This document shows, piece by piece, positions 783 through 21,580 of a stretch of 64,000 nt of DNA; positions within the stretch are counted from its first letter, which is position 1, and every line of letters starts with the position of its first letter. Both the position numbers and the translations under genes were made by a program. Source of the DNA: Candidatus Aminicenantes bacterium UBA6072 (GTDB lineage Bacteria > Acidobacteriota > Aminicenantia > UBA2199); the NCBI GenBank assembly GCA_002436105.1, contig DIXU01000003.1:107773-171772 (forward strand), in the 5' to 3' direction. The notes under the pieces are model-generated. The model made no database searches and was not told where the DNA came from. It saw nothing but the letters and a program-made list of their open reading frames with translations.

Positions 783-786
<4 letters not shown>

Positions 787-2231
787 AGGCTCTCTCCCCT
801 GCGCCAGCGCAGGACCGGCTTGCGGGCGGCCAGCGTCTCGTCCAGGCGGCGCACCGGCGTGCGGGTCGGGGCCCGGCGCAGCAGCTCGGGATCCTCCCGG
901 GCCTCGCGCAGGACGGTCTCCATCACGGCAATGAACTCGTCCAGGGTCTCCTTGCTCTCGCTCTCGGTCGGCTCGATCATCATCGCCCCGTGCACGATGA
1001 GCGGAAAATAAATGGTGAAGGGATGGATGCCGTAGTCCAGCAGCCGCTTGGCGATGTCCAGGGTCCTGACCGGCAGGCCGCTGTCGGAGAAGACCACCTC
1101 GTGCAGCGAGGGCCCCTTGTAAGGCAGGTCGAGGTGCTTCTCCAGCCGCTTGCGCACGTAGTTGGCGTTCAGCACGGCATCCTCGGCCACGCGCCGGACG
1201 TTCTCCCGGCCCAGGCTCATCAGGTAGGCCAGGGCCCGGACGATGACCAGGAACTGGCCGTAGAAGTTTTTCACCCGTCCGATGCTGCGCGGGTCGTCGT
1301 ACACGACGTCAAAGCCCTTTCCCTCGCGCCGCACCCGCGGCACGGGCAGATGGGGCAGCAGATGCGCGGCCACTCCGACCGGGCCCGAGCCGGGCCCGCC
1401 GCCGCCGTGGGGAGTGGAGAAGGTCTTGTGCAGGTTGATGTGCATGACGTCCACGCCGAGGTCCCCGGGGCGCACCGCTCCCAGCAGGGCGTTGAGATTG
1501 GCGCCGTCCATGTACAGCAGGGAACCGTTGGCGTGCAAAGCATCGGCAACGGCCATGATATCCGATTCGAAAATGCCAAGGGTATTGGGATTGGTCATCA
1601 TCAGCGCCGCCACCTCGGGCGTGAGGTGCGGGCGCAGCTCGGCCAGGCCGATGGTGCCCTGGGGGCTGGATGCGATCTCCTTGACCTCGTAACCCGCGAA
1701 ATGGGCCGATGCCGGGTTCGTGCCGTGGGCCGAGTCGGGGATCAGCACCAGCTTGCGGGGATCGCCCTTCTCCTCCAGGTGCTTGCGCACCATCAGCATG
1801 CCGGTGAACTCGCCATGCGCCCCGGCGGCCGGGGCCAGCGTGAAGCCGGCCAGGCCGGTCAGCTCCTGCAGCCACTCCTCGAGCCGGGCCAGGATTTCCA
1901 GGTTGCCCTGCACCAGGTCGTGCGGGGCGTAGGGATGGGCTTGCAGCTCCTCGGCGGCGGCCAGCTTCTCGTTGATCTTGGGATTGTACTTCATGGTGCA
2001 GGAGCCCAGGGGGTAAAAACCGGCGTCGACGGAGTAGTTGAGCTTGGCCAGCGCCATGTAGTGGCGCACGATTTCCACCTCGGATACTTGGGGGAAATCG
2101 GCGAGTTCCCGGCGCTGCAGTTCCCGGTCGACGGCCGGCTCATCGGGCACGTCGGCCTCGTTCAGTCCGACGCCGATCTTCCCCTCGCGGCTCAACTCGA
2201 ATATCAGCTTGGGCAGGGTGTTCATGATCAT
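783..2231 (-). CDS. gcvPB: Glycine dehydrogenase (decarboxylating) subunit 2
   Basis: 482-aa ORF with the typical P-protein C-terminal half (INLHKTFSTPHGGGGPG PLP-lysine region). It follows gcvPA with a 4-nt ATGA overlap. Confidence 0.95.
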
Positions 2232-3571
2232 TCTCCCAGGGCGTCCAGCAGGCGGTCGATGGCGGCACGGTCATGGACCTCGCTGAAGGCGAGAAGCAGG
2301 CGGTCCTTCTGCCGGGCGTCGAACCAGGCCATGGGAACTCCGGCCAGGATGCCTTGCTTGCGCAGTTCCGCTGCCCGGTCGCTGGCGCTCCCCTTCATGA
2401 CCTCGATGAGCACTTCGTTGAAGAAATTCCTCTCGTAGACCACGCGGAAGCTTCGCTTCCCGGCCGCCGCCCTGGCGAAATAGGCGGCATTCAGGTGGCA
2501 GGCGCGGGCGGCGCGGGTCAGGCCGGCCCGGCCCATGACGGCCAGGTACATGCCGGCGCGCATGGCGCACCAGGCCTCGTTGGAACAGATGTTCGACGTC
2601 GCCTTCTCGCGCTTGATGTGCTGTTCGCGGGTGGACAGCGTCAGCACGTAGCCGCGCTTGCCGTCCAGGTCGCGGGTCTGGCCCACCAGGCGGCCGGGCA
2701 GCTGGCGCATGAACTCCTCGCGCACGGCGATAAAACCCAGGTACGGGCCGCCGAAGCCCAGCGTCAGGCCGAAACTCTGCGCCTCTCCCACCGCCATGTC
2801 GACGCCCGCATCACCCGGCGCCGCGAGATAGGCCAGAGACATGGCCTCGGCCACCACCTGCACGGCGTAGGCCTTGCGCCCATGGGCGGCGACGGCGATG
2901 GCCGGACCATCCTCCACCACGCCCAGGAAATTGGGTGACTGGAAGAGGACGGCGGCCGTGCCGTCGTCGAGTTTGGCCTCCAAATCGGCGGCATCCACGC
3001 GGCCGCTGGCCTCGTCCACGGCCACCGTCACCATTTCGATCGGCAGGTTCTGCACGTAGGTGCGGATGACCGCGGCATACTCGGGATGCAGGCTGCCGGC
3101 CAGCAGCACCCGGCCGCGCCCCGAACGGCGCGTGGCCAGCAGCACGGCTTCGGCGGCGGCGGTGGCGCCGTCGTAGAGGGAAGCGTTGGCCACGTCCAGG
3201 CCGGTCAGCATGGCCATCATGGTCTGGTACTCGAAGATCGCCTGCAGGCTGCCCTGGCTGACCTCGGGCTGGTACGGCGTATAGGGCGTGAGAAACTCGC
3301 CCTTGGCGCTCAGGTAGGTAACGACCTCGGGTATGAAATGGGAATAGGCGCCGGCCCCCAGGAAGCTGAGGTACCCGGAGAAGGAGTTGCGGCGGCCGAA
3401 CTCCCTGAAGAGAGCCGTCAACTCAGGCTCGCTCAACGCCTTGGGCAGCTTGTCCAGGGGCGGGCGGCACTGTCCCGACGGGATGCAGGTGAACAGGTCA
3501 CTGACTTGGGCGATGCCGATGACCCGCTTCATCTCCTCCCGTTCCGCGTCGGTCAGCGGCAGGTATCTCAT
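2228..3571 (-). CDS. gcvPA: Glycine dehydrogenase (decarboxylating) subunit 1
   Basis: 447-aa ORF beginning MRYLPLTDAEREEM, containing FLGAGAY, TPYQPEVSQG and EYQT motifs. It sits in a gcvT-H-PA-PB operon. Confidence 0.95.
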   Translation of the reverse strand: MRYLPLTDAEREEMKRVIGIAQVSDLFTCIPSGQCRPPLDKLPKALSEPELTALFREFGRRNSFSGYLSFLGAGAYSHFIPEVVTYLSAKGEFLTPYTPYQPEVSQGSLQAIFEYQTMMAMLTGLDVANASLYDGATAAAEAVLLATRRSGRGRVLLAGSLHPEYAAVIRTYVQNLPIEMVTVAVDEASGRVDAADLEAKLDDGTAAVLFQSPNFLGVVEDGPAIAVAAHGRKAYAVQVVAEAMSLAYLAAPGDAGVDMAVGEAQSFGLTLGFGGPYLGFIAVREEFMRQLPGRLVGQTRDLDGKRGYVLTLSTREQHIKREKATSNICSNEAWCAMRAGMYLAVMGRAGLTRAARACHLNAAYFARAAAGKRSFRVVYERNFFNEVLIEVMKGSASDRAAELRKQGILAGVPMAWFDARQKDRLLLAFSEVHDRAAIDRLLDALGE

Positions 3572-3574
3572 CGC

Positions 3575-3964
3575 TCACTCCCCGGCAATGCCCTTCAGGT
3601 ATTCCTCGTATTTCTTCAGGTCCATGAGTTCGTCGAGCTCGGAAACCTGCTCGACGCTCATCTTGAAGATCCAGCCCTCGCCGAAAGGATCCTGGTTGAC
3701 CAGCTCCGGGCTGTCCCCCAGCTTGGCGTTGGCTTCGGTCACTTTGCCCGTGACCGGGGAATACACGTCGGAGACGGCCTTGACCGACTCGATGTTGGCC
3801 GCAGGGTCTCCCTTCTTCAGTTCCTTGCCCGCTGCGGGCAGGTCGACGAACACGACATCGCCCAGCTCGTGCTGGGCGTAATCGGTGACGCCGATGACCA
3901 CCGCATCGCCTTCGCGGCGCACCCACTCATGATCCTTGCTGTACAGAAGATTTTCCTTTGCCAT
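3575..3964 (-). CDS. gcvH: Glycine cleavage system H protein
   Basis: 129 aa. YSKDHEWV start region and the lipoyl-lysine motif ESVKAVSDVYSPVTG. Confidence 0.95.
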   Translation of the reverse strand: MAKENLLYSKDHEWVRREGDAVVIGVTDYAQHELGDVVFVDLPAAGKELKKGDPAANIESVKAVSDVYSPVTGKVTEANAKLGDSPELVNQDPFGEGWIFKMSVEQVSELDELMDLKKYEEYLKGIAGE

Positions 3965-3976
3965 GTACGGTTCCTC

Positions 3977-5074
3977 CTACTTGTTTCTTTTATAAAACGG
4001 GGTTTCCACGATCCTGGCGCTGGCCGTCTTTTCGCGAATGGCGATCTGGAATTCATCGCCCACGGCGCAATGCTCAGCGGGCAGATAGGCCAAGCCGATG
4101 GGTTTTTTCAGGAATGGGGCGAAAGTCCCCGACGTGACGGCACCGAAGGCCCTGCCGTCCACGCGGATCGGGTAGCCATGGCGGGCGATGCCCTTGTCGA
4201 GCAGCTCGAAACCCACCAGCTTGCGGCGGATGCCCTCCTGTTTCTGCCGGGCCAGCGCTTCCTGGCCGATGAAGGGCTCCTCCTTCCTGAGCTTGAGTAT
4301 CCAGCCCAGGTCGGCCTCCAGCACCGTGTGGCTGTCGTCGATATCGTTGCCATAGAGTGCCATCTTGGCTTCCAGGCGCAGGGTGTCGCGGGCGCCCAGG
4401 CCGGCGGGCAGGGCATCGTACTTCTCCCCCTTGCCGGCCAGGTCCAGGAACAGCTTGGAGGCGGCGGCGGCGTCGGACTTGAAGTAGATCTCGAAGCCGT
4501 CCTCTCCGGTGTAGCCGGTGCGCGAAACGATGGCGTCCATCCCCTGCACGCGGCCCTGCGCGAAGTGATAGTAGCCCATGGGCTGGAGATCGATTTCGGT
4601 GAACTCCTGGAGCAGCTTTTCGGCCACCGGGCCCTGGACGGCGATCTGCGAGTACTCCTCGCTGCGGTCCTCGAGCTGCACGTCAAATCCGGCGGTGTGC
4701 TTCTTCATCCACAGAAAATCCTTTTCGACGTTGGCCGCGTTGACCACCAGCAGGTACTCGTTCTCCCGGATCATGTAGACCAGCAGGTCGTCGACGAAGC
4801 AGCCGTTCTCGGTCAGCAATCCGGCGTACTGGATCCGCCCCGGCGCCAGCTTGGAGGCGTCGTTGGAGATGAGGTGCTGCACGGCCCTGAGCGCTTCACG
4901 GCCGCGGAACCAGATCTCGCCCATGTGACTGACGTCGAAAATGCCGCCGGTGGTGCGCACGGCCACGTGCTCGGTGTTGACGCCCGAGTACTGAACCGGC
5001 AGGTCCCAGCCGCAGAACTCGACCATCTTGCCCTTCAGGAGGTAATGCGCTTCATTGATCTTGGTTTTTTTCAT
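3977..5074 (-). CDS. gcvT: Aminomethyltransferase (glycine cleavage T protein)
   Basis: 365 aa. GWDLPVQYSG, FDVSHMGE and SRTGYTGEDGFEI motifs. First gene of the gcv operon. SD GGAGA lies 6 nt upstream. Confidence 0.95.
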   Translation of the reverse strand: MKKTKINEAHYLLKGKMVEFCGWDLPVQYSGVNTEHVAVRTTGGIFDVSHMGEIWFRGREALRAVQHLISNDASKLAPGRIQYAGLLTENGCFVDDLLVYMIRENEYLLVVNAANVEKDFLWMKKHTAGFDVQLEDRSEEYSQIAVQGPVAEKLLQEFTEIDLQPMGYYHFAQGRVQGMDAIVSRTGYTGEDGFEIYFKSDAAAASKLFLDLAGKGEKYDALPAGLGARDTLRLEAKMALYGNDIDDSHTVLEADLGWILKLRKEEPFIGQEALARQKQEGIRRKLVGFELLDKGIARHGYPIRVDGRAFGAVTSGTFAPFLKKPIGLAYLPAEHCAVGDEFQIAIREKTASARIVETPFYKRNK

Positions 5075-5099
5075 TGGTTATCTCCAAAAATAAATTAAT

Positions 5100-5128
5100 A
5101 AAATAACACAGACCCCGGGGAATTGCAA
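5100..5128 (-). promoter_or_regulatory. Sigma70-type promoter for the gcv operon
   Basis: Minus strand reads TTGCAA (5128-5123), N17, TATTTT (5105-5100), about 25 nt upstream of the gcvT ATG. Confidence 0.45.
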
Positions 5129-5141
5129 GGCAAATCAGGAT

Positions 5142-5170
5142 TTGACAACCTTTTTCCGGCGTAATATAGT
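5142..5170 (+). promoter_or_regulatory. Sigma70-type promoter for the histidine kinase/response regulator pair
   Basis: TTGACA (5142-5147), N17, TATAGT (5165-5170). Near-consensus hexamers stand out in GC-rich DNA. Confidence 0.55.
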
Positions 5171-5192: not shown

Positions 5193-6401
5193 ATGCGCAC
5201 ACGCCATCGCGAGGAATTCCTGGTCACGACCGCCGCCGCTCTGCAATCGGCCCGCAGCGCCCGCGACTTCCTTGCCTCCTTTTCCGCCATCCTGCGCCGC
5301 TACTTTCCTCTGGAACGCTGCATCGTCTATTTCAAGGAACCCGAGGGCAATGTCTTCAAGCCCTACAGCGACGATGACACGTCGGTTCCCCTGCCGCTCA
5401 TCCCTGAGGAAGCCGACCTGGTCGAGAGTTTCACCGGGCGCAGGGAACCCATGGTCGACGGGCCGCGGACCCGCATGTACTTCGAGCTGTTCGACCGCGG
5501 CACCCGGGGCCTGTTGGCCGGCAACGGCGTCAACCTGATCATCCCGCTGCACGCCAGGAGCTATTTCCGCGGCCTGCTGCTGGCCAGGATCGACCGGAGC
5601 GACCTCGCTGCCGTTCACGAATTGACCGTGGCCGTGCAGACGGCAGCGGTCATGTTCATCCCGCTGATCGAAGCCGAGCGGCTGGAATTCGCCAACGACA
5701 AGAACTTCTACCGCCTGTTCAAATTCGATCGCCTGGTACTGGTGGGGCAAATGGCCGCATCGCTGGCGCATGAGCTGCGTACGCCGCTGACCACCGTGCT
5801 TTTCGAGGCCACGGCCATCAAGGGCCGGACGGGAAACGACGGCGCGATCGCCGCTTCCTGCGAAAAGATCAATCGCGAGATCAACCGCGCCGGGCGGCTG
5901 GTCGAGTCGCTGCTGGTATTTTCCAAGTTCAAGGGGCTCAACCTCAGCCACTTCCCGTTGCGCGAATTCGTGGAGCGGACGCTGGCCGAGATCCCGCCGA
6001 AGAAGATCCCGGACAGCGTGGAGATCCGCGTCCGGGCCGAAAGGGAGATCCGGGTGGCCAGCGACAGCGACCGCCTGAAGCAGGTGTTCATGAACGTTCT
6101 GTTCAACGCCCTGGAGGCCATGGCCGGAAAGGGGAACGGAAGCATCGATATCCGCATCTACAGCGAGTACGACGAGTTGCCGCGGAATATCCACCACGTT
6201 ATCGCCATCCGCGACTCGGGCCCGGGCATTCCCGACGCGATCAAGGACAGGGTCCTGGAGCCGTTCTTCACCACCAAGAAGGAGGGCACCGGGCTCGGGC
6301 TCTACATTTCCTACAGCATCATGAAAACCCTGAAGGGCGACCTGGAGATCCACAGCTCCGGCCAGGGCACCCAGGTCAACCTGATCCTACCCGCGAGGTG
6401 A
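5193..6401 (+). CDS. Cytoplasmic sensor histidine kinase (GAF-like N-terminus, HisKA, HATPase_c)
   Basis: H-box SLAHELRTPLT, N-box NVLFNALEAM, G1 RDSGPGIP, G2 GTGLGLYIS. No TM segment. Start set at ATG 5193 because the track's TTG at 5142 is the -35 hexamer. Confidence 0.85.
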   Translation: MRTRHREEFLVTTAAALQSARSARDFLASFSAILRRYFPLERCIVYFKEPEGNVFKPYSDDDTSVPLPLIPEEADLVESFTGRREPMVDGPRTRMYFELFDRGTRGLLAGNGVNLIIPLHARSYFRGLLLARIDRSDLAAVHELTVAVQTAAVMFIPLIEAERLEFANDKNFYRLFKFDRLVLVGQMAASLAHELRTPLTTVLFEATAIKGRTGNDGAIAASCEKINREINRAGRLVESLLVFSKFKGLNLSHFPLREFVERTLAEIPPKKIPDSVEIRVRAEREIRVASDSDRLKQVFMNVLFNALEAMAGKGNGSIDIRIYSEYDELPRNIHHVIAIRDSGPGIPDAIKDRVLEPFFTTKKEGTGLGLYISYSIMKTLKGDLEIHSSGQGTQVNLILPAR

Positions 6402-7771
6402 GCATGAAAACAGGAAAGCGCATCCTGCTGATCGAGGACGATGAACCCCTGCGTGAATCGATACGCTGCTTTCTCGACCAGAACGGATTCCTGACCGTTG
6501 AGAGCGGCTGCCTGGCCGATGCCAGGCTCCATCTCGAGCGGGAGGCCTTCGACCTGGTCCTGCTCGATCTGACCCTGCCCGACGGAGACGGCATGGACGT
6601 CCTGGAGTGGTTCGCCGCCCAGTACCCGCACCGCATCGTGGTGCTGACCGGCACCGGATCGATCGAAACCGCCGTCCTGGCGATGAAGAAGGGGGCGCAC
6701 GATTTCCTGCAGAAACCGGTCAATCCCGACATGCTGCTGATCACCCTGCAGCGGTCCCTGGCCTTTCTTCAAGCCCGGGATGAATGCCGGGACCTGAAGC
6801 GGGAGATCGGCAACGCCGACGGCTTCGACAAGTTCATCTACCGCAGCCGGGCCATGGCCGAAGTGATCGGCACCGCCAGGCAATATGCCGCCACGTCCCA
6901 CACCATCCTGATCTGCGGAGAGACCGGGACCGGCAAGGAGCTCATGGCCCAAGCCATCCACCGCTGTTCCAGCCGCGGCAGCCAGCCGCTGGTCTCGGTC
7001 AATTGCGCATCCATTCCCGAGAACCTCGCGGAATCGGAGCTGTTCGGCTACAAGAAAGGCGCATTCACCGGCGCCTATGCCGACTCGCCGGGCAAGTTCC
7101 TCCTGGCCGACCGCGGCACGATCCTGCTGGATGAGATCGGCGAGCTGCCGCTCAACATCCAGGCCAAGCTGCTGCGCGTCCTGGAGGATTCGGTGATCGC
7201 CCCCTTGAAGAGCAAGAAACCGCTGCCGGTCAACATCCGGGTGCTGGCGGCCACCAACAAGGACCTGGAGGAGGAAGTGCAGCACAAGCGTTTCCGCGCC
7301 GACCTGTACTACCGCATCGATGAGCTGAAGATCCTGATCCCGCCGCTGCGCTCGCGCCGCGAGGACATCGTGCCGCTGGCCGAGCATTTCCTGGGCATCG
7401 CCAACCTGGTCAATCCCCGGCGCATCACCGGCATTTCCGGCGCGGCACGCCGGCTGCTGGCCCGCTATGACTGGCCGGGCAACGTGCGCGAGCTGAAGAA
7501 CACCATCTTCAAGATCTCCGCCGCCGGGCTCAGTGGCGAGATCGGGCCGGAGCACCTGCCGCTGAAGCTGCTGCACCCGCGCAGGAGCCACGACCGGGGC
7601 GCCCGGCAGCCCAGCCTGGCCGAGGTCAGCCGCGACCACATGCAGGATGTCCTGAGCCAATGCGGCTACAAGTACGCCCAGGCGGCGAAGATACTCGGCA
7701 TATCCCGCACTTCGCTGTACCGGAAGATGTCCGAACAGGATGTCAAAAACAAGAAAAAGACCGTCAGTTGA
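6398..7771 (+). CDS. Sigma54-dependent response regulator (REC, AAA+ and Fis-type HTH; NtrC/AtoC family)
   Basis: REC with [14 protein letters not shown], Walker [15 protein letters not shown] loop ([15 protein letters not shown]), C-terminal [19 protein letters not shown]. 4-nt overlap with the kinase gene. Confidence 0.9.
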
Positions 7772-8438
7772 GGAATTTCAGGTACAGATCCTTGATGTCC
7801 ATGTCCTTCAGGTCGGCGGAATCGGCTTCGAACAGCAGCCGGCCGTTCTTGATGAAGCCCGCGCGGTCAGCGATCTCCGAGGCATAAAAGATATCGTTGC
7901 CCAGGTAAAGGATGGCCTGGCCCTGCGCCTTTTTCTGCAGCAGCAGCTTGTTGAACTTCAGTTCGAAGCTCTTCTCCGACCCGCGGATGAAGTCGTTGAT
8001 GACGATATCCGCCCTGTCAGCGGCCAGGCAAATGGCCAGGTAGACCTGCCGGAAGATGTCCGGCGCCAGGTCGCGCACATTTCTTTTCAGGTGACGTTCA
8101 TGAAAACCGCACACGAGGAGCGTCTTGAAAACGCTCGTTCTCTCATAACCGCAAGCGGCGCAGAGGAATTCGATCCAATCGCCGATGCTGGCTTCGGTCT
8201 CGAAATCGGCAGCGTCCGCGACGCGCTCGATGAAGATCGCCGCGGCCGCCCCGGGCGGGCCGCCGCTGAAAGCGACCTCGCCGGCGTCGGGTCGCCGCAG
8301 TCCGCACAGGATTTCAAAGAAGCGGTCGAAGCCGGGGCGGTTCAGCAGGAAATAGATCTCGCCGGCGGCGATCTCCAGGTTCAGGGGGTCGAGGCGCTCA
8401 TCGCCTTGAACCAATCCCACGTCGCGAATGGCGATCAT
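7764..8438 (-). CDS. ABC-ATPase-fold protein with all catalytic motifs degenerate (pseudo-NBD)
   Basis: The fold-level pattern of an ABC NBD is present (IAIRDVGL...LNLEIAAGEIYFLL, ...GEVAFSG). Walker A is NRPGFDRF, the signature is LAPDI, Walker B is IVINDF and the H-loop is GND. Start taken at the ATG overlapping the upstream stop (ATGA, 8438). Confidence 0.6.
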   Translation of the reverse strand: MIAIRDVGLVQGDERLDPLNLEIAAGEIYFLLNRPGFDRFFEILCGLRRPDAGEVAFSGGPPGAAAAIFIERVADAADFETEASIGDWIEFLCAACGYERTSVFKTLLVCGFHERHLKRNVRDLAPDIFRQVYLAICLAADRADIVINDFIRGSEKSFELKFNKLLLQKKAQGQAILYLGNDIFYASEIADRAGFIKNGRLLFEADSADLKDMDIKDLYLKFLN

Positions 8439-9775
8439 GGCCGGCCTACCTGGCGCTGCAGGCTCAAGAAGGCCAGCAGGAGAAGGGCGGCGCAATAAAG
8501 CGCCGTCAGCATGACCCCGGGAACGAAGGAACGCGGCAGGCGGCTGCGCGAACGGAAGATGTTCTCGCTGCCCTTGACGAAGGACTCCACGGCGGAATCG
8601 GGCTCCAGATAGCGCCTTTTTAGGTAGAACTGCATGAAGCGGTTGCGAAGTTTCATGATGTAGTCCATGAACTCCAGGTAGCCGTGATACCCCTTCCCGG
8701 AGGCTTCGCCGCTGAGAAACTGGTAGTAGGTGGTCGGGAAGAACACCGATCGGCGCTCGTGGGCAGCGATCACATTCTCGATCTGGCGGAAATAGCGCAT
8801 TTCAAGGCCTGTATTCACCAGATAGCTGCTGTTGATGAACTGGACGGCGAACTCTTTCTGCATCTGGCGGACCTGGTCGAGCGAACTGCGGGGATTCGCC
8901 TTCAGGTAGTCGCGGAATTCCTGTTCCATGGCCATCAGGTTGCGGAACTTTTCCAGGTTGATCTTTTCCGCCGGCTCCAGGGACTGCGAATTCCGGAAGA
9001 CGCTGATGCGGCTGAGCTCGGGCAACAGGAAGATGCAGGCGAACCAAACGACAAAGAACCACAGGAAGAAGGTCTTGCGGAAGCGGATCAGCACCGTGGT
9101 CAGCTGCCCCAGCAGATAGATGAAGTCAAGCAACAGGACCAGGAACAGCGAAAAGCATAAAAAAACCCCCCGTTCCTGCCCGGAGAACACGATGCCGCCG
9201 GCTTGCACGCCGACGAACAACCCCATGATCAGGACAAGGAAGAGCAGGTCCAGCCAGAAGAGGCGGGCGGCCGTGGTCAGGAAAAAATACCTGGCCAGCG
9301 GCATGCGGAGGGCCAGGAAGCGCAGATAGGGAGGGCTGACCAACGCCAGGTGGCCGAGATAGAGCATCAGCAGCGAGCCAAATACGAGGAGGATGCCGGC
9401 AAAATCCTTGAAGTACCCGCGCATGAGAAAAAGCTTGTCCCCCTTGAACGAACTGTCGATGCGGATGGCCTCATAATTGTCGATGTTGCTTTCCAGGTCC
9501 TGCAGGATGCTGCTGTTGATGAAGAACAGGTTGAGCGGCGCCGTTTCATACAGGATGCGGAACCCGAATGTGCCGTATTGGGCATAGGTGGCGATCTGCC
9601 GGGTTTTTTCCTTTTCGAAATCGACGAAGAATTTCTTTTCGGCGAGGGAGCGTCGGTATTCATTCACCCCCGACCAGGCAAAATAGCCTGTGGACAATGC
9701 AATCAGGGCGAAGAAGGCCAGATTCTTTTTTTCGGCAAAGATCCTGAATGCTTCGAAGCGAAAAAACGCTAGCAT
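8435..9775 (-). CDS. Polytopic membrane protein, ABC-2-permease-like topology with an extra C-terminal domain
   Basis: 446 aa. N-terminal TM, a roughly 100-aa loop, a block of about 5 hydrophobic helices, then a roughly 160-aa polar domain and a final TM. Translationally coupled to the pseudo-NBD. No family recognised with certainty. Confidence 0.55.
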   Translation of the reverse strand: MLAFFRFEAFRIFAEKKNLAFFALIALSTGYFAWSGVNEYRRSLAEKKFFVDFEKEKTRQIATYAQYGTFGFRILYETAPLNLFFINSSILQDLESNIDNYEAIRIDSSFKGDKLFLMRGYFKDFAGILLVFGSLLMLYLGHLALVSPPYLRFLALRMPLARYFFLTTAARLFWLDLLFLVLIMGLFVGVQAGGIVFSGQERGVFLCFSLFLVLLLDFIYLLGQLTTVLIRFRKTFFLWFFVVWFACIFLLPELSRISVFRNSQSLEPAEKINLEKFRNLMAMEQEFRDYLKANPRSSLDQVRQMQKEFAVQFINSSYLVNTGLEMRYFRQIENVIAAHERRSVFFPTTYYQFLSGEASGKGYHGYLEFMDYIMKLRNRFMQFYLKRRYLEPDSAVESFVKGSENIFRSRSRLPRSFVPGVMLTALYCAALLLLAFLSLQRQVGRP

Positions 9776-9829
9776 GCTTCATCATATCAGATTGACGGAA
9801 AAAGACAACGGCGGTCTGTTTCTGCTGGG

Positions 9830-10462
9830 CTAGATCTTGTAAAAGACCATGGAAGCGTAATTACCGAAGATCATCGTGCTGTTGTACTGCTGCAGCAGGG
9901 CCCACAACACCCGGTTGTCCGGTGAACGGCCGTCGAGCAGTTCTGCCCGGATGCGCTGCAGGGTGTCCAGGAGAACCTGCAGGTTCCGGGCATGGCGGCG
10001 GTAGAACCCCAGGACGTTGCCACGGCCCAGGTAGGAGGAGACCTCGTCCATCGTCTCCTTGCTCAGGCCGTTCTCCTGGGCGAAACGGCCGTAGTCGAAG
10101 TCCTTCAGATGGCCGATGCGCCGGGGGGCATATCCCGCCTCGTTGCCGGTGGCGATGATGTTCTTGAACAGGTCCAGCGCCCGCTCCACGCGGAAGGCGG
10201 CCATGTCGGCCCTCTGCAGTGCCGCATGAACGTTCAGCCCGTTCCGGCCGGCGATCTCCACCTCGTTGAGCAGCAGGAATGCGTCCGCGGCCGATTGCAG
10301 CAACTCGGAAGCGCTGTCGGTGATCATGTCCCCGATCTGCACGCTGGTCTTGCCCGGGAAAGGGGTGGTCGGATCGTTCGCCACCATGACCGCATGCAGA
10401 CCGACAATGGAGATCCCGATCAAGACGACGCCCAGAATCAATTTGACCATACGCTTTTTCAT
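9830..10462 (-). CDS. Membrane-anchored or secreted helical protein, unknown function
   Basis: 210 aa. N-terminal signal/anchor MKKRMVKLILGVVLIGISIVGL. SD AAGGAGG 6 nt upstream. First gene downstream of the predicted sigma54 promoter. Confidence 0.5.
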   Translation of the reverse strand: MKKRMVKLILGVVLIGISIVGLHAVMVANDPTTPFPGKTSVQIGDMITDSASELLQSAADAFLLLNEVEIAGRNGLNVHAALQRADMAAFRVERALDLFKNIIATGNEAGYAPRRIGHLKDFDYGRFAQENGLSKETMDEVSSYLGRGNVLGFYRRHARNLQVLLDTLQRIRAELLDGRSPDNRVLWALLQQYNSTMIFGNYASMVFYKI

Positions 10463-10535
10463 TGCTTACCTCCTTGATATTTCATTCGATTTCCTTATAA
10501 CCCGTTCCTTGGATCCGACCGGTTCATTAGAATTT

Positions 10536-10552
10536 AAGCAATTAGCTTGCCA
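10536..10552 (-). promoter_or_regulatory. Sigma54 (-24/-12) promoter
   Basis: Minus strand reads TGGCAAGCTAATTGCTT, i.e. TGGCA-N6-TTGCT with canonical GG/GC spacing. It lies about 75 nt upstream of the 10462 ATG, and a sigma54 activator gene is adjacent. Confidence 0.55.
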
Positions 10553-10912
10553 TCATGATGGCAGGATCAGCAAACGCTGCCAGGACCTTGATCTTGGCGA
10601 TCGCCCTTCCCCGCGATCGTACTCCGCCCAGGCCTGCTTGTTCAAAAATGGGACACCCGGGACGGGCAAACGGTGAAAAATCCCCTCAGGAATGCTTTTT
10701 TGTTCAAGGGCCCAATTGTCTCATTTCTGGACACCGGGAGCTGAAAATCTTGAGAATGCCTATATCATGACTAATTTGAGGTTTTCCCTTGTTTCAAATT
10801 GAATCATTTGGCTTTATTTCAGGCGCTGTCGGGTGAACGGCGATCCGGGAGCAAACCGGGTCGACGCGGGCATGGACGACGCGGCCAGGCCATTCCCGCC
10901 GCGGGTCACCGC

Positions 10913-12352
10913 TCACTTCAGCAGCTTGACCAGTTTCCCCGCCTCGGGAACGGCATCGAGAGCGATCGAATTGAACACGGACAGCTGCTTCCAGTGCGAG
11001 CGGTCCACTCCCGATCGGGTCAGCAGTGCCTGCAGGGTCTGGCGGCCGTCCGGACGGACCAGGGTCAGGCGTTCGGGGCCGCGGCTCAAGATCTTTGGAT
11101 CGCTCAGGTTCTGGAATGAGTCGATGGAGCGGTTCAGGATGGGATGGTAGGTGTTGGCCGTGCTGTTGGCGCTGATGCCGATGAACGAATAGACCAACGC
11201 CCCCTTGCGAATGCATGAGAGACGGACGGCCAGCGGTTCGCTTTGCTCCTGGGGCACCTGGAACCAGGCATGGCGCGCCTGGAAGGGGCCGATCGCGTCG
11301 CCGGCCGTTTTCAGCAGCTTGGCCTGGCCAAGGCCCTGGGCCTTGGCCTGCAGGTACGGGGCGAGGTCCTGGCTCGTTGTCTCGGCCTGCAGCAGCAGGG
11401 CTGCCCGACCCTCCTTCTCGCCGATCATGACCTGCATGGGTGTGTTCTGCACGACCCAGTTGGCAGGGATCGAAAAACGGAACGCCATTTCCGGATGGTA
11501 AAAGACGCCGTTCTCGACGAAGCCCTGGCGCGGATTGTCGCCGTAGATCAGGCCGTCCAGGCGACGCAAATAATCCTCCTTCTTGATGGCCAGGCCGGCG
11601 TCCTGGCTCGAGAGCTGCTCCTTGACCTTGGCGATGCGGTCCGAGGTCATGGGGTGGGTGGAGAGGAAGGTGGGGATATTGTGGCTGCTCGATTCGGCGC
11701 TCATGTTTTCCAGGGCGCTGAAGAAGCGCAGCATCTCGCCCGGAGCGTATTGCGCCTGGCGGGCATAGCGTATGCCCAGGGAATCGGCCTGGTACTCGTC
11801 GCTGCGGCTGAACTTGAGGAAAAGCAGCTGCGTGCCGATACTGGCCAATCCGGCGAACTTGCGGATATCCTTGCTGACGACGCTGCCGACGACCAGGCCG
11901 ATCTGGGCCAGCATCTGGCCGCTCATCTGGGCCATCGAGTGGCGGGCGGCGACATGGCCCATCTCGTGGCCCAGCACCGCGGCCAGCTCGGCCTCGCTGT
12001 TCATCAGCGCCAGGATGCCGCGCGTCACGTAGATGTACCCGCCGGGTGCGGCAAAGGCATTGACCATCGGCGTGTCGAGGACGGCGAAATAGTGCTTCAA
12101 TTTCGGCCGGTGCGAATTCGGCACCATGCTCTGCCCGACGCGGTTGACGTATTCGTTGAGCGCCTTGTCCTCGTAAATTCCATACTGCTGGCGGATCGCC
12201 TGGTCGGTCTCCTGGCCCATGGCGATCTCCTGCTGTTCGGAGAAGAACATCAGCTCCTTCTTGCCGCTGACCGGATTGACGGCGCAGGCAATGGCCAGCA
12301 GGACCGCAACCAGAATTACGATGATCCATTGTTTGTGAAAAAATCGCTTCAT
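10913..12352 (-). CDS. M48 family zinc metallopeptidase, secreted
   Basis: 479 aa. Signal peptide, NAFAAPGGYIYVTRG, HEMGHVAARH zinc motif. Confidence 0.85.
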   Translation of the reverse strand: MKRFFHKQWIIVILVAVLLAIACAVNPVSGKKELMFFSEQQEIAMGQETDQAIRQQYGIYEDKALNEYVNRVGQSMVPNSHRPKLKHYFAVLDTPMVNAFAAPGGYIYVTRGILALMNSEAELAAVLGHEMGHVAARHSMAQMSGQMLAQIGLVVGSVVSKDIRKFAGLASIGTQLLFLKFSRSDEYQADSLGIRYARQAQYAPGEMLRFFSALENMSAESSSHNIPTFLSTHPMTSDRIAKVKEQLSSQDAGLAIKKEDYLRRLDGLIYGDNPRQGFVENGVFYHPEMAFRFSIPANWVVQNTPMQVMIGEKEGRAALLLQAETTSQDLAPYLQAKAQGLGQAKLLKTAGDAIGPFQARHAWFQVPQEQSEPLAVRLSCIRKGALVYSFIGISANSTANTYHPILNRSIDSFQNLSDPKILSRGPERLTLVRPDGRQTLQALLTRSGVDRSHWKQLSVFNSIALDAVPEAGKLVKLLK

Positions 12353-12493: not shown

Positions 12494-14188
12494 ATGAAAC
12501 GTTCCCTGATTTTCCTGCTGGGCGTGTCCTTTCTGCCGTCGTTCGCGGGTGACCGCTTGACCGGGCGGCTGGCCGCGACCCGCTCCGAGGTCATCGGCCG
12601 CAACGGCATGGTTGCGGCCAGCCAGCCGCTGGCCGCTCAGGTCGGCATCGACATCCTGAAGAAGGGGGGCAGCGCCGTCGACGCCGCCATCGCCGTCAAC
12701 GCCGCCCTGGGGCTGATGGAACCTTCGGGGTCGGGCATCGGCGGCGACCTGTTCGCCATCGTCTGGGACAACCGCGAGGGCAAGCTGTTCGGGCTGAACG
12801 CCAGCGGCCCGGCACCGGCGGAGCTCCCGCTCGCCTATTTCCGTGAGAAAGGGATCACGCTCATGCCGGAAAAAGGCCCTCTGCCCTGGACAGTCCCGGG
12901 CTGCGTTGCCGGCTGGTTCGCCTTGCACGAGCGATTCGGCCGCCTGGGCATGGGCGACGTCCTGGCTCCGGCTATCGCTTACGCCGAGCAGGGATTCCCG
13001 CTTTCCGAGCTGATCGCCTTCTACTGGCAGCGTTCGCTGCAGGCCTTTGCCGGGTACGAGAATTTCCAGAGGCTGTACGCCCCGGGGGGGCGGGCACCGG
13101 CCAAGGGGGACGTCTTCCGCAACCCCGAGCTGGCCGCCACCTATCGCATCCTGGCCCGCAAGGGGTGCGATGCATTCTACCGCGGCGAGCTGGCAGAGAA
13201 GATCGTCGCCTACTCCGGAAAGGTCGGCGGCTATTTTTCGCTTCAGGATTTCGCCGCCTTCGAACCCGAATGGGTGGAGCCGATGAGCGTCGATTACCGC
13301 GGTTATGACGTCTGGGAACTGCCGCCCAACGGCCAGGGATTGGCCGTCCTGCAAATGCTGCGCCTGCTCGGCCATTTCGACCTCAAGGCCATGGGCCACA
13401 ACTCAGCCGCCTACCTGCACGCGCTGGTCGAGGCCAAGAAGATCGCCTACGAAGACCGCGCCCGCTTCTACGCCGATCCGCGCTTCGCCGCCCGCGATTA
13501 TGCCGCCCTTATCTCCCCGGCCTACGCCAGGAAGCGTCTGGAGCTGTTCGACCGCGAGCGCGCCAGCCGTTCCCTGCCGCCCGGCGACCCGCGCCTGGCC
13601 CAGGGCGACACGGTCTACCTGACCGTCGTCGACAAGGATTTCAACGCCGTGTCGCTGATCCAGAGCAATTACGTCGGCTTCGGCTCGGGCATGGTGCCCG
13701 ACGGCCTCGGCTTCTGCCTGCAGGACCGCGGCGCGCTGTTCAATGTCCAGGATCCCGGCCACGCCAACGCGTTCGCCCCGGGGAAACGGCCGTTCCACAC
13801 CATCATTCCCGGCTTCGTCACCCGCGCCGGCAGGCCGGTCTTTTCCTTCGGCGTCATGGGCGGCGACATGCAGCCGCAGGGGCACGTCCAGGTCCTGTGC
13901 AATATCATCGACTTCGCCATGAACCTGCAGGAGGCGGGCGACGCGCCGCGCTTCCGCCATGCCGGTTCCTCGGAACCCGACGGCACGGTGATGAGCGACG
14001 GGGGCACGCTGTTCCTCGAGAGCGGCGTCGATGCCGAGGTCGTCCGCGACCTGATCCGGCGCGGGCACCGGGTAAGCCGCAGCGCTTCCGAGTTCGGGGG
14101 CTACCAGGGCATCTGGATCGACTGGGAGCGAAAGATCCTGATCGGAGCCAGCGAGTCCAGGAAGGACGGCTGCGCCATCGGCTACTGA
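12494..14188 (+). CDS. ggt: Gamma-glutamyltransferase
   Basis: 564 aa. Signal peptide, GGSAVDAAIA, GIGGDLFA, autoprocessing/nucleophile region QGDTVYLTVVDKDFNAVSLIQSN, and GGDMQPQ. SD GGAGG 4 nt upstream. Confidence 0.93.
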   Translation: MKRSLIFLLGVSFLPSFAGDRLTGRLAATRSEVIGRNGMVAASQPLAAQVGIDILKKGGSAVDAAIAVNAALGLMEPSGSGIGGDLFAIVWDNREGKLFGLNASGPAPAELPLAYFREKGITLMPEKGPLPWTVPGCVAGWFALHERFGRLGMGDVLAPAIAYAEQGFPLSELIAFYWQRSLQAFAGYENFQRLYAPGGRAPAKGDVFRNPELAATYRILARKGCDAFYRGELAEKIVAYSGKVGGYFSLQDFAAFEPEWVEPMSVDYRGYDVWELPPNGQGLAVLQMLRLLGHFDLKAMGHNSAAYLHALVEAKKIAYEDRARFYADPRFAARDYAALISPAYARKRLELFDRERASRSLPPGDPRLAQGDTVYLTVVDKDFNAVSLIQSNYVGFGSGMVPDGLGFCLQDRGALFNVQDPGHANAFAPGKRPFHTIIPGFVTRAGRPVFSFGVMGGDMQPQGHVQVLCNIIDFAMNLQEAGDAPRFRHAGSSEPDGTVMSDGGTLFLESGVDAEVVRDLIRRGHRVSRSASEFGGYQGIWIDWERKILIGASESRKDGCAIGY

Positions 14189-17258: not shown

Positions 17259-17287
17259 TTTACTATTTTGTTTTAGTTTGCTATCGT
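17259..17287 (+). promoter_or_regulatory. Candidate promoter giving a leaderless REC-HD-GYP mRNA
   Basis: TTTACT (17259-17264), N17, TGcTATCGT (-10 at 17282-17287), then 7 nt to ATG 17295. Confidence 0.4.
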
Positions 17288-17294
17288 GGGTCCA

Positions 17295-18377
17295 ATGAGA
17301 AAGGGCAAGATCCTCATCACCGACGACGAGAAGGATATCCGCGAGCTGCTTCGCGATTTCCTGGAGAGCGAGGGGTTCGAGTGCCAGCTGGCGGCCAACG
17401 CGTTCGAGGCCCTGGAAAAATTCAAGGCGGACGGTGATATCGACCTGCTGATGTCGGACATCCGCATGCCCGGCAAGACCGGCTTGGACCTCCTGGATGA
17501 GATCAAGGCCCTGAACGAGGACGTGATGGTCGTGATGATCTCGGCCGTCAAGGATATCGAGTCGGCCATTGCCGCCATGTCCAAGGGGGCTTACGACTAT
17601 GTCTCCAAGCCCTTCAAGCTCAACGAGGTCGCGTTTGTGGCCAATAAGGCCCTGGAAAAGCGCCGGCTGGTCATGGAGAACAAGGAATACCAGAAGCAGC
17701 TGGAAAAGATGGTCGAGGAAAGGACCAGCGAGCTGAAGCAGGCGCTGATCGAGCTGGACAAGACCTATAGTTTCACCCTGCGCGCCATGGTCACCGCCCT
17801 CGATACCCGCGACACCGAGACCCAGGGCCATTCCCTGCGCGTGGTGCGCTTCACGCTCAAGCTGGCCGAACTGGCGGGCATTGCCGACAAGAACACCCTG
17901 AAGATCTACGAGTACGGCGCGCTGCTGCACGATATCGGCAAGATCGGCATTCCCGACGCCATCCTGCGCAAGCCGGACAAACTGTCCGCCGATGAATGGG
18001 AGACCATGAAGGAGCATCCGACCATCGGCTACAACATCCTGAAGCGGATCAAGTTCCTCGAAGATGCCGCCCAGATGGTCCTGCACCACCACGAGGCCTA
18101 TGACGGCAGCGGCTACCCCGAGGGGCTGAGCGGCGAGAACATCCCCCTGGGGGCGCGCATCTTCCACGTCGCCGACGCCATCGACGCCATGACCTCCGAC
18201 CGCCCCTACAAAAGGGCGATGGCCTTCGATGCCGCGGCGGCCGAGCTGCTGAATTATTCGGGCCGGCAGTTCGACCCGGAGATCATCGCCATCTTCGCCA
18301 AGACCAGCCTGGACTTCTGGATCGCGGAAAAGGCGAGCATCGAGGACAGTATCCGCCGCGACCGTGAAGGCTTATGA
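17295..18377 (+). CDS. Response regulator with HD-GYP domain (c-di-GMP phosphodiesterase family)
   Basis: REC (ILITDDEKDIREL, DLLMSDIRMPGKTG), then HD-GYP (LLHDIGKIGIPD, HHEAYDGSGYPEGL). Confidence 0.88.
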   Translation: MRKGKILITDDEKDIRELLRDFLESEGFECQLAANAFEALEKFKADGDIDLLMSDIRMPGKTGLDLLDEIKALNEDVMVVMISAVKDIESAIAAMSKGAYDYVSKPFKLNEVAFVANKALEKRRLVMENKEYQKQLEKMVEERTSELKQALIELDKTYSFTLRAMVTALDTRDTETQGHSLRVVRFTLKLAELAGIADKNTLKIYEYGALLHDIGKIGIPDAILRKPDKLSADEWETMKEHPTIGYNILKRIKFLEDAAQMVLHHHEAYDGSGYPEGLSGENIPLGARIFHVADAIDAMTSDRPYKRAMAFDAAAAELLNYSGRQFDPEIIAIFAKTSLDFWIAEKASIEDSIRRDREGL

Positions 18378-21543: not shown

Positions 21544-21580
21544 TTTGCCAAGACATCCTCCCTATGCTAAGATTCCCCTG

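Follow-up and report, generated by a model that had tools for sequence, protein, structure and literature searches.

Two-component systems dedicated to a single neighbouring sigma-54 operon are well known; AtoSC and ZraSR are each such a pair, and ZraSR responds to envelope stress. We analyzed a locus of comparable organization in a 64-kb stretch of DNA (herein the window; 64,000 nucleotides of contig DIXU01000003.1) from Candidatus Aminicenantes bacterium UBA6072, an affiliation to which homologs also point. Its plus strand carries a histidine kinase gene followed by the gene of an NtrC-type response regulator, on which a minus-strand operon of three genes (10462 to 7764) converges; the operon is preceded by a sigma-54 -24/-12 element, TGGCAAGCTAATTGCT. 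Coordinates throughout are window positions, and minus-strand genes are read from high to low numbers. Sequence comparison suggests, with a probability that we put at about 0.8, that a classical two-component, enhancer-dependent switch drives the operon from TGGCAAGCTAATTGCT. Regulation of this type is an ordinary, well-supported further example of known sigma-54 control, and the current view of that control is not overturned; the more unusual part is the output module, which comprises a helical-bundle protein of 210 amino acids (aa), a 446-aa membrane protein related to ATP-binding cassette (ABC) permeases of the ABC-2 type, and a 224-aa relic of an ABC nucleotide-binding domain.

The likeness to NtrB/NtrC-glnAp2 is architectural. 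Both systems have a regulator with a receiver, a GAFTGA AAA+ domain and a Fis-type helix-turn-helix (HTH), several dyad enhancer sites ~100 to 250 bp upstream of a -24/-12 promoter, and a soluble cognate kinase whose gene is translationally coupled to that of the regulator. The regulator of this locus cannot, however, be counted as an ortholog of NtrC, since it reaches 320.7 bits with TIGR01818, whose cut-off is 558.6; the palindrome found here, TGTCCCA-N3-TGGGACA, is unlike the site recognised by NtrC; a membrane operon takes the place of nitrogen assimilation as the target; and the genes of sensor pair and target converge, with an 8-bp overlap. AtoS (158.4 bits) and ZraS (119 bits) are the best kinase models and AtoC (336.7 bits) is among the best regulator models, but the scores stay far below equivalog cut-offs of 479 to 760 bits (AtoC 714, AtoS 646, and ZraR 760 against 291.7 scored); unlike ZraS and AtoS, the kinase is without a membrane or periplasmic sensor domain, and the target genes are unrelated. 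The top NCBIfam regulator model is PrsR (TIGR02915, 358.6 bits, full length), which together with PrsK (TIGR02916) is associated with PEP-CTERM/exosortase systems, and TIGR02916 aligns with kinase residues 10 through 417, taking in the N-terminal domain and the catalytic core. Both matches are again below cut-off (PrsR 358.6 against 502.6 bits; PrsK 83.2 against 300 bits), the kinase aligns to model positions 291 through 679 only and is without the N-terminal part of the PrsK model, and exosortase or PEP-CTERM genes were not seen among the neighbours examined.

The preliminary description had placed a -24/-12 element about 75 nt upstream of a three-gene operon, and this is confirmed: TGGCAAGCTAATTGCT lies in the orientation of the operon, stops 74 nt short of the start codon at 10462 (an ATG, itself preceded by AGGAGG), and agrees with TGGCACG-N4-TTGCW at 11 of its 12 specified positions, its GG and GC standing ten bases apart in the correct orientation upstream of a gene. 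It is the sole TGGCA-N6-TTGCW match of the window. At least one such match occurs in 17 of 100 shuffles of the window, so that a single match is not significant alone; the element is significant because of where it lies and because relatives keep it. From a collection in which each species is represented by one genome, a profile of the 446-aa protein retrieved 27 related loci (L001 through L027); 15 of them have the same arrangement and a covered upstream region and form the basis of the conservation count. Conservation in orthologous loci had been proposed as a check on the element, and all 15 orthologous Candidatus Aminicenantes loci carry TGGCA-N7-TGC at the operon head, with varying spacer letters. 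When both strands of the window and of all loci are counted (813 kb), TGGCA-N7-TGC[AT] has 18 matches, 15 of which lie at the operon head in the same orientation. Read from the -12 GC, transcription would start near 10526. An Rfam scan of positions 9700 through 11000 returned no element and so gave no sign of a leader riboswitch or small RNA.

Alignment of the upstream regions of the orthologous loci exposes the palindrome TGTCCCA-N3-TGGGACA, which was not noticed in the first reading of the sequence. Two or three copies are present in each of the 14 related loci, centred 92 to 97, 170 to 178 and 236 to 250 bp upstream of the -24 TGG; elsewhere in these loci there are just a few scattered matches with two mismatches. 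We built a position matrix from 38 sites of the relatives, leaving the window out, and scanned all 64 kb of the window. The three highest-scoring positions (23.3, 17.4 and 10.3 bits) are sites 1, 2 and 3 upstream of TGGCAAGCTAATTGCT; the next-best score anywhere in the window is 2.3 bits, and shuffle maxima average 8.3. Site 1 (TGTCCCATTTTTGAACA on the operon strand) is a degenerate palindrome with two mismatches centred 95 bp upstream of the -24 TGG, and its equivalent is present in 14 of 14 related loci. Site 2 (three mismatches, centre at ~173 bp) has an equivalent in 13 of the 14, and site 3 (centre at ~246 bp) in 10. The spacings between the window sites (78 and 73 bp), like the 95 bp from the first site to the promoter, are as in the relatives. 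An activator that forms oligomers across multiple dyad sites and contacts the promoter through a DNA loop would be expected to have its sites laid out in this way.

The product of the neighbouring regulator gene has the composition of an NtrC-type (group I) enhancer-binding protein. Pfam assigns Response_reg (residues 9 through 115, E = 6.2e-21), Sigma54_activat (E = 6.4e-64), AAA_lid_14 and a C-terminal HTH_8 of Fis type (residues 406 through 445, E = 5.8e-11). The phospho-acceptor aspartate motif of the receiver is conserved in all orthologs, and the GAFTGA loop is intact in the window (at 7058) and in 14 orthologs. The GTG start of the regulator overlaps the kinase stop (GTGA). In every palindrome-bearing locus the recognition helix, LGISR[TS]SLYRK, is invariant, and the regulator is the sole DNA-binding protein found in the conserved neighbourhood. 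Synteny also speaks for the pair: Aminicenantes genomes keep the five-gene arrangement (54 to 92% amino acid identity between close orthologs), and in L013 and L014 it can still be recognised at ~30 to 48% identity. The preliminary description had named the kinase/activator pair as the regulator of the sigma-54 promoter, an assignment now supported by the conservation of the promoter, the palindromes, the GAFTGA loop and the contrast with loci that have no such pair.

The promoter, the palindromes at their conserved distances, the domains of the proteins, the shared gene order and the joint occurrence of activator and promoter type are observed; on that basis the switch can be pictured in five steps. 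The kinase and regulator genes (5193 to 7771) would be transcribed from a sigma-70 promoter of their own, so that the sensor pair is always present. A cytoplasmic signal, sensed by the N-terminal domain of the kinase, would control phosphorylation of the receiver. The phosphorylated regulator would assemble on the three palindromes ~95, 173 and 246 bp upstream of -24, and DNA looping with ATP hydrolysis would then open the closed complex of sigma-54 RNA polymerase at TGGCAAGCTAATTGCT. The three-gene operon would thereby be switched on.

Several observations weigh against this switch. A search with an RpoN-box regular expression in six-frame translations of the window and the 27 loci gave no rpoN match. 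L013 keeps a related kinase/regulator pair (40 to 48% identity) with no recognisable -24/-12 element before its helical-bundle gene; co-occurrence of activator and promoter type is therefore not perfect. The palindromes of the window are the weakest of the set, relatives scoring 19.5 to 34.2 bits, and the first two operon genes are lost in the window lineage, so the switch could be weakened or partly decayed. Finally, a sigma-70-like match lies in the 54-nt gap 5' of the permease gene, and the M48 peptidase gene upstream is co-directional, which makes some read-through into the operon possible.

The first two of these points bear on the source of the activator and of sigma-54 itself. Sigma-54 and its activators co-occur across genomes, with the cell exterior as their common theme (PMC3162934); from this rule and the conserved GAFTGA activator we infer that rpoN is present in the genome. 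The cell-exterior theme is consistent with an envelope-facing operon product but is not specific. We found no literature on sigma-54 in Aminicenantes. The promoter might also be real and yet be driven by an enhancer-binding protein encoded elsewhere, the adjacent pair having other targets: enhancer-binding proteins can act at distant promoters, in L013 a related pair stands beside an operon with no recognisable sigma-54 promoter, and the recognition helix is of the generic Fis type. We regard this as quite improbable. The pair adjoins the operon in all loci with promoter and palindromes that have enough downstream sequence, across 54 to 92% protein identity. It is missing from the distant loci L016 through L027, which have the helical-bundle and permease genes and, in L016, L019, L020 and L026, sigma-70-like TTGACA-17-TAnAAT promoters at the membrane module. 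No other DNA-binding protein was seen in the conserved neighbourhood, and no second GAFTGA protein is encoded in the 64-kb window. We infer that the neighbouring regulator, not another protein, binds the palindromes. In L013 and L014, whose pairs are divergent, there are no palindromes of the TGTCCCA-N3-TGGGACA type, and inverted-repeat scans of the upstream regions show nothing enhancer-like; L014 has TGGCACATTCCCTGCA 385 nt upstream of the helical-bundle gene.

The operon of the window is a reduced one. In 12 of the 15 loci the first gene after the promoter encodes a protein of ~290 aa with a CarboxypepD_reg domain (E = 4.7e-13), and in 8 a single-domain receiver gene follows it, ahead of the helical-bundle gene. 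The loci with extra genes are L003 through L011, L015, L018 and L023 (e.g., L006:4988-6278); the CarboxypepD_reg domain is N-terminal, and a signal peptide is not obvious. Both extra genes are absent from the window and from L001, and L002, a close relative on contig DCVK01000061 of the metagenome-assembled genome UBA2190, keeps a remnant of the CarboxypepD_reg gene, its first 50 codons (L002:4635-4784); the window lineage therefore lost them by deletion. In six loci (L003 through L006, L009 and L018) the enhancer sites are separated from the M48 gene by a hybrid histidine kinase gene, whose product in L006 (L006:2635-4686) has GAF, PAS, HisKA, HATPase and receiver domains. Hybrid kinase and in-operon receiver together suggest a second phosphorelay input that the genome of the window does not have. 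Two relatives have the helical-bundle gene as a tandem pair (L004:5554-6934 and L005:5595-6934), the copies being ~51 to 56% identical to the window protein. The description of the circuit as self-contained thus fits the window lineage, but not most relatives, which have two more operon genes and in some cases the hybrid kinase. Given these extra genes and the weakness of the window palindromes, the self-contained form is derived, and the circuit may act more weakly in the window than elsewhere.

A stronger version of the same argument would make the locus a decaying remnant in the source genome, where most operon transcription would come from M48 read-through or a sigma-70 promoter and the -24/-12 element would be a leftover. 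The window has the lowest-scoring palindromes of all loci, the third barely above background; the CarboxypepD_reg and receiver genes of its relatives are gone; the sigma-70-like match 5' of the permease gene is available; and there is no convincing terminator after the M48 gene, the sole hairpin match overlapping enhancer site 1. We nonetheless consider decay very improbable. The -24/-12 element is still near-perfect, and sites 1 and 2 score far above all else in the window. All five genes are intact, which counts against outright decay, and regulator, kinase and operon genes are under purifying selection relative to the closest relatives; for the operon, the ratio of nonsynonymous to synonymous substitution rates (dN/dS) against close relatives is 0.14 to 0.33 for the 224-aa protein, 0.12 to 0.21 for the 446-aa protein and 0.12 to 0.30 for the 210-aa protein. 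Furthermore, L001 shares the reduced layout yet keeps a perfect site 2. An enhancer-dependent switch, possibly attenuated, thus remains our reading for the window.

On the sensor side, the preliminary description had called the kinase a cytoplasmic GAF kinase. Its kinase core is clear (HisKA, E = 2.9e-11; HATPase_c, E = 9.1e-21), and no hydrophobic membrane segment was seen on reading the sequence; the GAF assignment is not confirmed and has sub-threshold hints only. The N-terminal 189 aa have no Pfam match at E <= 1, the segment taken separately gives GAF_3 at E = 0.17, and GAF_3 appears below threshold in 6 of 13 orthologs (best E = 0.002). A profile of this region retrieves 3p01_A as its best PDB match at E = 0.25, and among the neighbouring hybrid kinases compared just one starts with a GAF domain. 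Of 13 orthologous loci examined, 12 have at the same place a TTGAC-N17-19-TAnnnT counterpart of the promoter assigned to the pair (Table 1). In the window, the -35 hexamer takes in the upstream TTG at 5142 as its first three letters, and the kinase start at 5193 given in the preliminary description is therefore right. Since the sensor pair has a conserved sigma-70 promoter of its own, it is made independently of its target.

Table 1. Features of the locus and its flanks, in window coordinates
Feature	Position	Strand	Basis or details
Sigma-70-type promoter of kinase/regulator pair	5142-5170	+	TTGACA 5142-5147, 17-nt spacer, TATAGT 5165-5170
Soluble histidine kinase, 402 aa	5193-6401	+	~170-aa N-terminal domain, HisKA, HATPase_c (Pfam)
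NtrC-type response regulator/enhancer-binding protein, 457 aa	6398-7771	+	Receiver, AAA+ with GAFTGA, Fis-type HTH
ABC nucleotide-binding-domain relic, 224 aa	7764-8438	-	PDB sequence matches to ABC ATPases
ABC-2-related six-helix membrane protein, 446 aa	8435-9775	-	AlphaFold2 model, family-level PF12679 matches
Membrane-anchored helical-bundle protein, 210 aa	9830-10462	-	AlphaFold2 model; first operon gene in source genome
Sigma-54 -24/-12 element TGGCAAGCTAATTGCT	10537-10552	-	Unique in window, conserved at operon head
Predicted enhancer site 1	10637-10657	unstranded	Palindrome, 23.3 bits
Predicted enhancer site 2	10715-10735	unstranded	Palindrome, 17.4 bits
Predicted enhancer site 3, weak, possibly decayed	10788-10808	unstranded	10.3 bits
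Flank: glycine-cleavage genes	783-5074	-	Beyond the kinase promoter
Flank: M48 peptidase	10913-12352	-	Co-directional with operon

The three products of the operon had been described as a membrane-anchored helical protein, an ABC-2-like permease with an extra domain and a pseudo-ATPase, and each of these readings is borne out. The 224-aa protein retrieves ABC ATPase chains from the PDB at E = 2.3e-5 to 1e-3 (FbpC, 6amx_A, LptB, ABCG23), the best alignments (e.g., 6amx_A) spanning most of its length, and has partial NCBIfam matches at E ~1e-6. All catalytic motifs are degenerate. The Walker A segment of FbpC (GASGCGKT) is aligned with NRPGFDR, which does not conform to GxxGxGK[ST], and the signature, Walker B and switch stretches read LAPDIF, IVINDF and YLGND, without LSGGQ, D-E and His, respectively. 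These degenerate motifs are common to 17 of 17 orthologs, and the protein is best described as a relic of the ABC ATPase fold, predicted to be unable to bind or hydrolyse ATP. For ABC ATPase domains without Walker A, the literature that we found holds eukaryotic half-site examples only.

The confident AlphaFold2 model of the 446-aa protein (predicted local distance difference test, pLDDT, 82; predicted template modelling score, pTM, 0.81) has six membrane helices, a ~90-aa loop after the first transmembrane helix (TM1) and a four-helix insert of ~125 aa (residues ~269 through 390) before the last one. In a fold search against the PDB, NosY (7qba_D) was the sole match of appreciable probability (0.80), with E = 0.96 and a TM-score of 0.44 by target length; there was no match at E < 0.2 in that search, and the sequence profile of the permease had no PDB match. 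The window protein itself is without a Pfam match. Relatives exceed the 27.2-bit threshold of PF12679 (ABC2_membrane_2), of which NosY is a member: P0348 scores 34.7, P0439 31.8 and P0442 32.1 bits, and P0095 has a precomputed match. Judged by these family matches, the ABC-2 relationship is real but distant, and membership in PF12679 is transitive, not direct. Close homologs are 60 to 88% identical and have a constant length of 446 aa. The model of the 210-aa protein (pLDDT 85) shows an N-terminal hydrophobic helix (residues 2 through 28) followed by a helical bundle. Its fold search returned generic four-helix-bundle matches only, such as the ligand-binding domains of Tsr and Tar, at E ~0.1; searches with the 446-aa and 210-aa models gave no PDB match at E < 0.03, and the 210-aa protein belongs to no Pfam or NCBIfam family. 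Its gene adjoins the permease gene in nearly all loci, distant ones included. By analogy with the ABC-2 topology known from the literature, an outward orientation would be expected for both enlarged loops and for the helical bundle, and a cytoplasmic one for the C-terminus. This arrangement fits the forms in which permease and relic are fused.

Such fusions dominate the wider family. An exhaustive profile search with the permease yielded 1,088 clusters (50% identity), of which 621 have E <= 1e-30; most of the top representatives are fusions of membrane and relic domain of 600 to 700 aa. None of 123 fused representatives has a Walker A motif; P0358 and P0377 match CcmA, lantibiotic-protection or LptB models. 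The product of the operon is most likely an envelope-facing membrane complex descended from an ABC exporter and unable to use ATP, made up of an ABC-2 protein whose enlarged loops point outward, a helical-bundle partner on the same side with a single anchoring helix, and a cytoplasmic ATP-binding-domain relic. With low confidence, we would expect an inducible envelope-facing scaffold, binding device or sensing device, and not an ATP-driven pump. More broadly, and at somewhat less than even odds, the operon may represent in split form a widespread family, so far undescribed, in which an ABC-2 domain is permanently joined to a relic that cannot bind ATP and is accompanied by a helical-bundle partner and a dedicated regulator, the whole being a descendant of ABC exporters that transports nothing and serves as an inducible envelope scaffold, ligand trap or signalling device. 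In the loci examined, the helical-bundle partner is nearly always present, and the dedicated regulator would be a sigma-54 two-component system at the present locus and of XRE type elsewhere. PADLOC defence models gave no relevant match for any component, which leaves an anti-phage role without support.

The operon might instead encode an ordinary ATP-driven ABC-2 exporter, e.g., of lipid, peptide or polysaccharide, powered by an active ATPase subunit that is encoded elsewhere and pairs with the degenerate subunit or takes its place. The membrane protein is of ABC-2 lineage, its partner is clearly derived from an ABC ATPase, Joint Genome Institute (JGI) annotation names homologs ABC-2 ATP-binding proteins, and ABC transporter heterodimers with one degenerate site are common. 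Here, however, all four catalytic motifs are lost and not one site; the fused representatives lack Walker A throughout and, on our own reading of them as presumed homodimers, would leave no room for an active partner; and no second ATPase gene adjoins the module in any locus. An exporter is, on this evidence, unlikely. Type V ABC-2 exporters (NosDFY, Wzm-Wzt) resemble the module in having a six-helix membrane protein with a large loop after TM1 and a partner of ABC ATPase fold. They differ in that the partner here is without Walker A, LSGGQ, the catalytic glutamate and the switch histidine, and in that the module has the four-helix insert, an obligatory helical-bundle partner and no NosD-like or substrate-related gene. 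BceAB-BceRS is similar in logic only, being an ABC-derived membrane module genetically coupled to its own inducing two-component system. BceAB has an active ATPase, an FtsX-type permease, a membrane-bound kinase, an OmpR-type regulator and sigma-70 dependence, all of which differ from the present locus; a Bce-like physical link between membrane module and kinase would be speculation.

For Candidatus Aminicenantes, a candidate phylum that metagenome-assembled genomes (MAGs) have made known, the locus offers a clean, testable set of enhancer, promoter and activator, and TGTCCCA-N3-TGGGACA could serve to map the targets of the regulator in such genomes. It also presents a case of regulatory swapping, the same membrane module standing under sigma-54 in one lineage and under sigma-70 with XRE in others. 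The unannotated family derived from ABC transporters, sizeable and without ATP-binding motifs, could show, once its role is worked out, how transporter scaffolds come to be reused outside transport.

XRE-type HTH genes lie near the module, often convergent to it, in L017, L022, L026 and L027 (checked against the family library for L017 alone). The distant loci also contain the fused gene for permease and relic domain, of 600 to 680 aa (e.g., L020:6307-9858). A conserved, unannotated protein of 224 to 241 aa that starts with METQEKIRRIIEYMNIPDFEQ is encoded convergent to the module in L019, L020, L021 and L025 and apparently in several others. Upstream in L019 and L020 is a gene that we take, from reading its sequence, to encode an adenylation domain resembling those of nonribosomal peptide synthetases (NRPS-like). 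The MAG records that carry relatives of the locus in L001, L007, L014, L025 and L027 are titled "uncultured Clostridia bacterium" (several) or "Chrysiogenales" (one). Proteins of L001, L007 and L018 are 58 to 92% identical to those of Aminicenantes records and have the same neighbourhood; the Clostridia and Chrysiogenales labels on these records look unreliable.

Five real genes occupy the studied region, with a GC content at third codon positions of 0.78 to 0.87 that is typical for genes of the source genome. The third open reading frame of the operon extends over 7764-8495; its most likely start is the ATG at 8438, which overlaps the permease stop (ATGA) and yields a product of 224 aa; the ortholog alignment supports this start, and public gene calls use it too. 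Reading both stops (regulator TGA at 7769-7771, last operon stop at 7764-7766) verifies the convergent overlap of 8 bp, 7764 through 7771, that the preliminary description had claimed, and the 450-bp spacer it gave between the operon and the co-directional M48 gene (10463-10912) is likewise correct. At the corresponding junctions inspected (e.g., L002 through L004 and L006) the stops overlap or nearly abut, with gaps of 0 to ~35 nt, and no space for a terminator was seen. Induced operon transcripts would then run antisense into the regulator and kinase genes, and could give negative feedback through transcriptional interference.

On the other side of the locus, in 5075-5141, the minus strand has TTGCAA-17-TATTTT upstream of gcvT, divergent from the adjoining kinase promoter and probably the promoter of the glycine-cleavage operon; the block TAAAATAACACAG is kept in the orthologous spacers. 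This spacer hardly seems long enough to hold a glycine riboswitch, a judgement made with no riboswitch scan there. Beyond the M48 gene, the plus-strand open reading frame 12494-14188 is presumably a gamma-glutamyltranspeptidase gene, as read from its sequence. Two further signalling genes lie nearby on the plus strand, for neither of which a link to the sigma-54 circuit was found: 17286-18377 encodes a receiver-HD (HD_5) response regulator, and 21545-24520 a protein of 991 aa in which Reg_prop and Y_Y_Y repeats are combined with a GGDEF domain, pointing to cyclic-di-GMP signalling.

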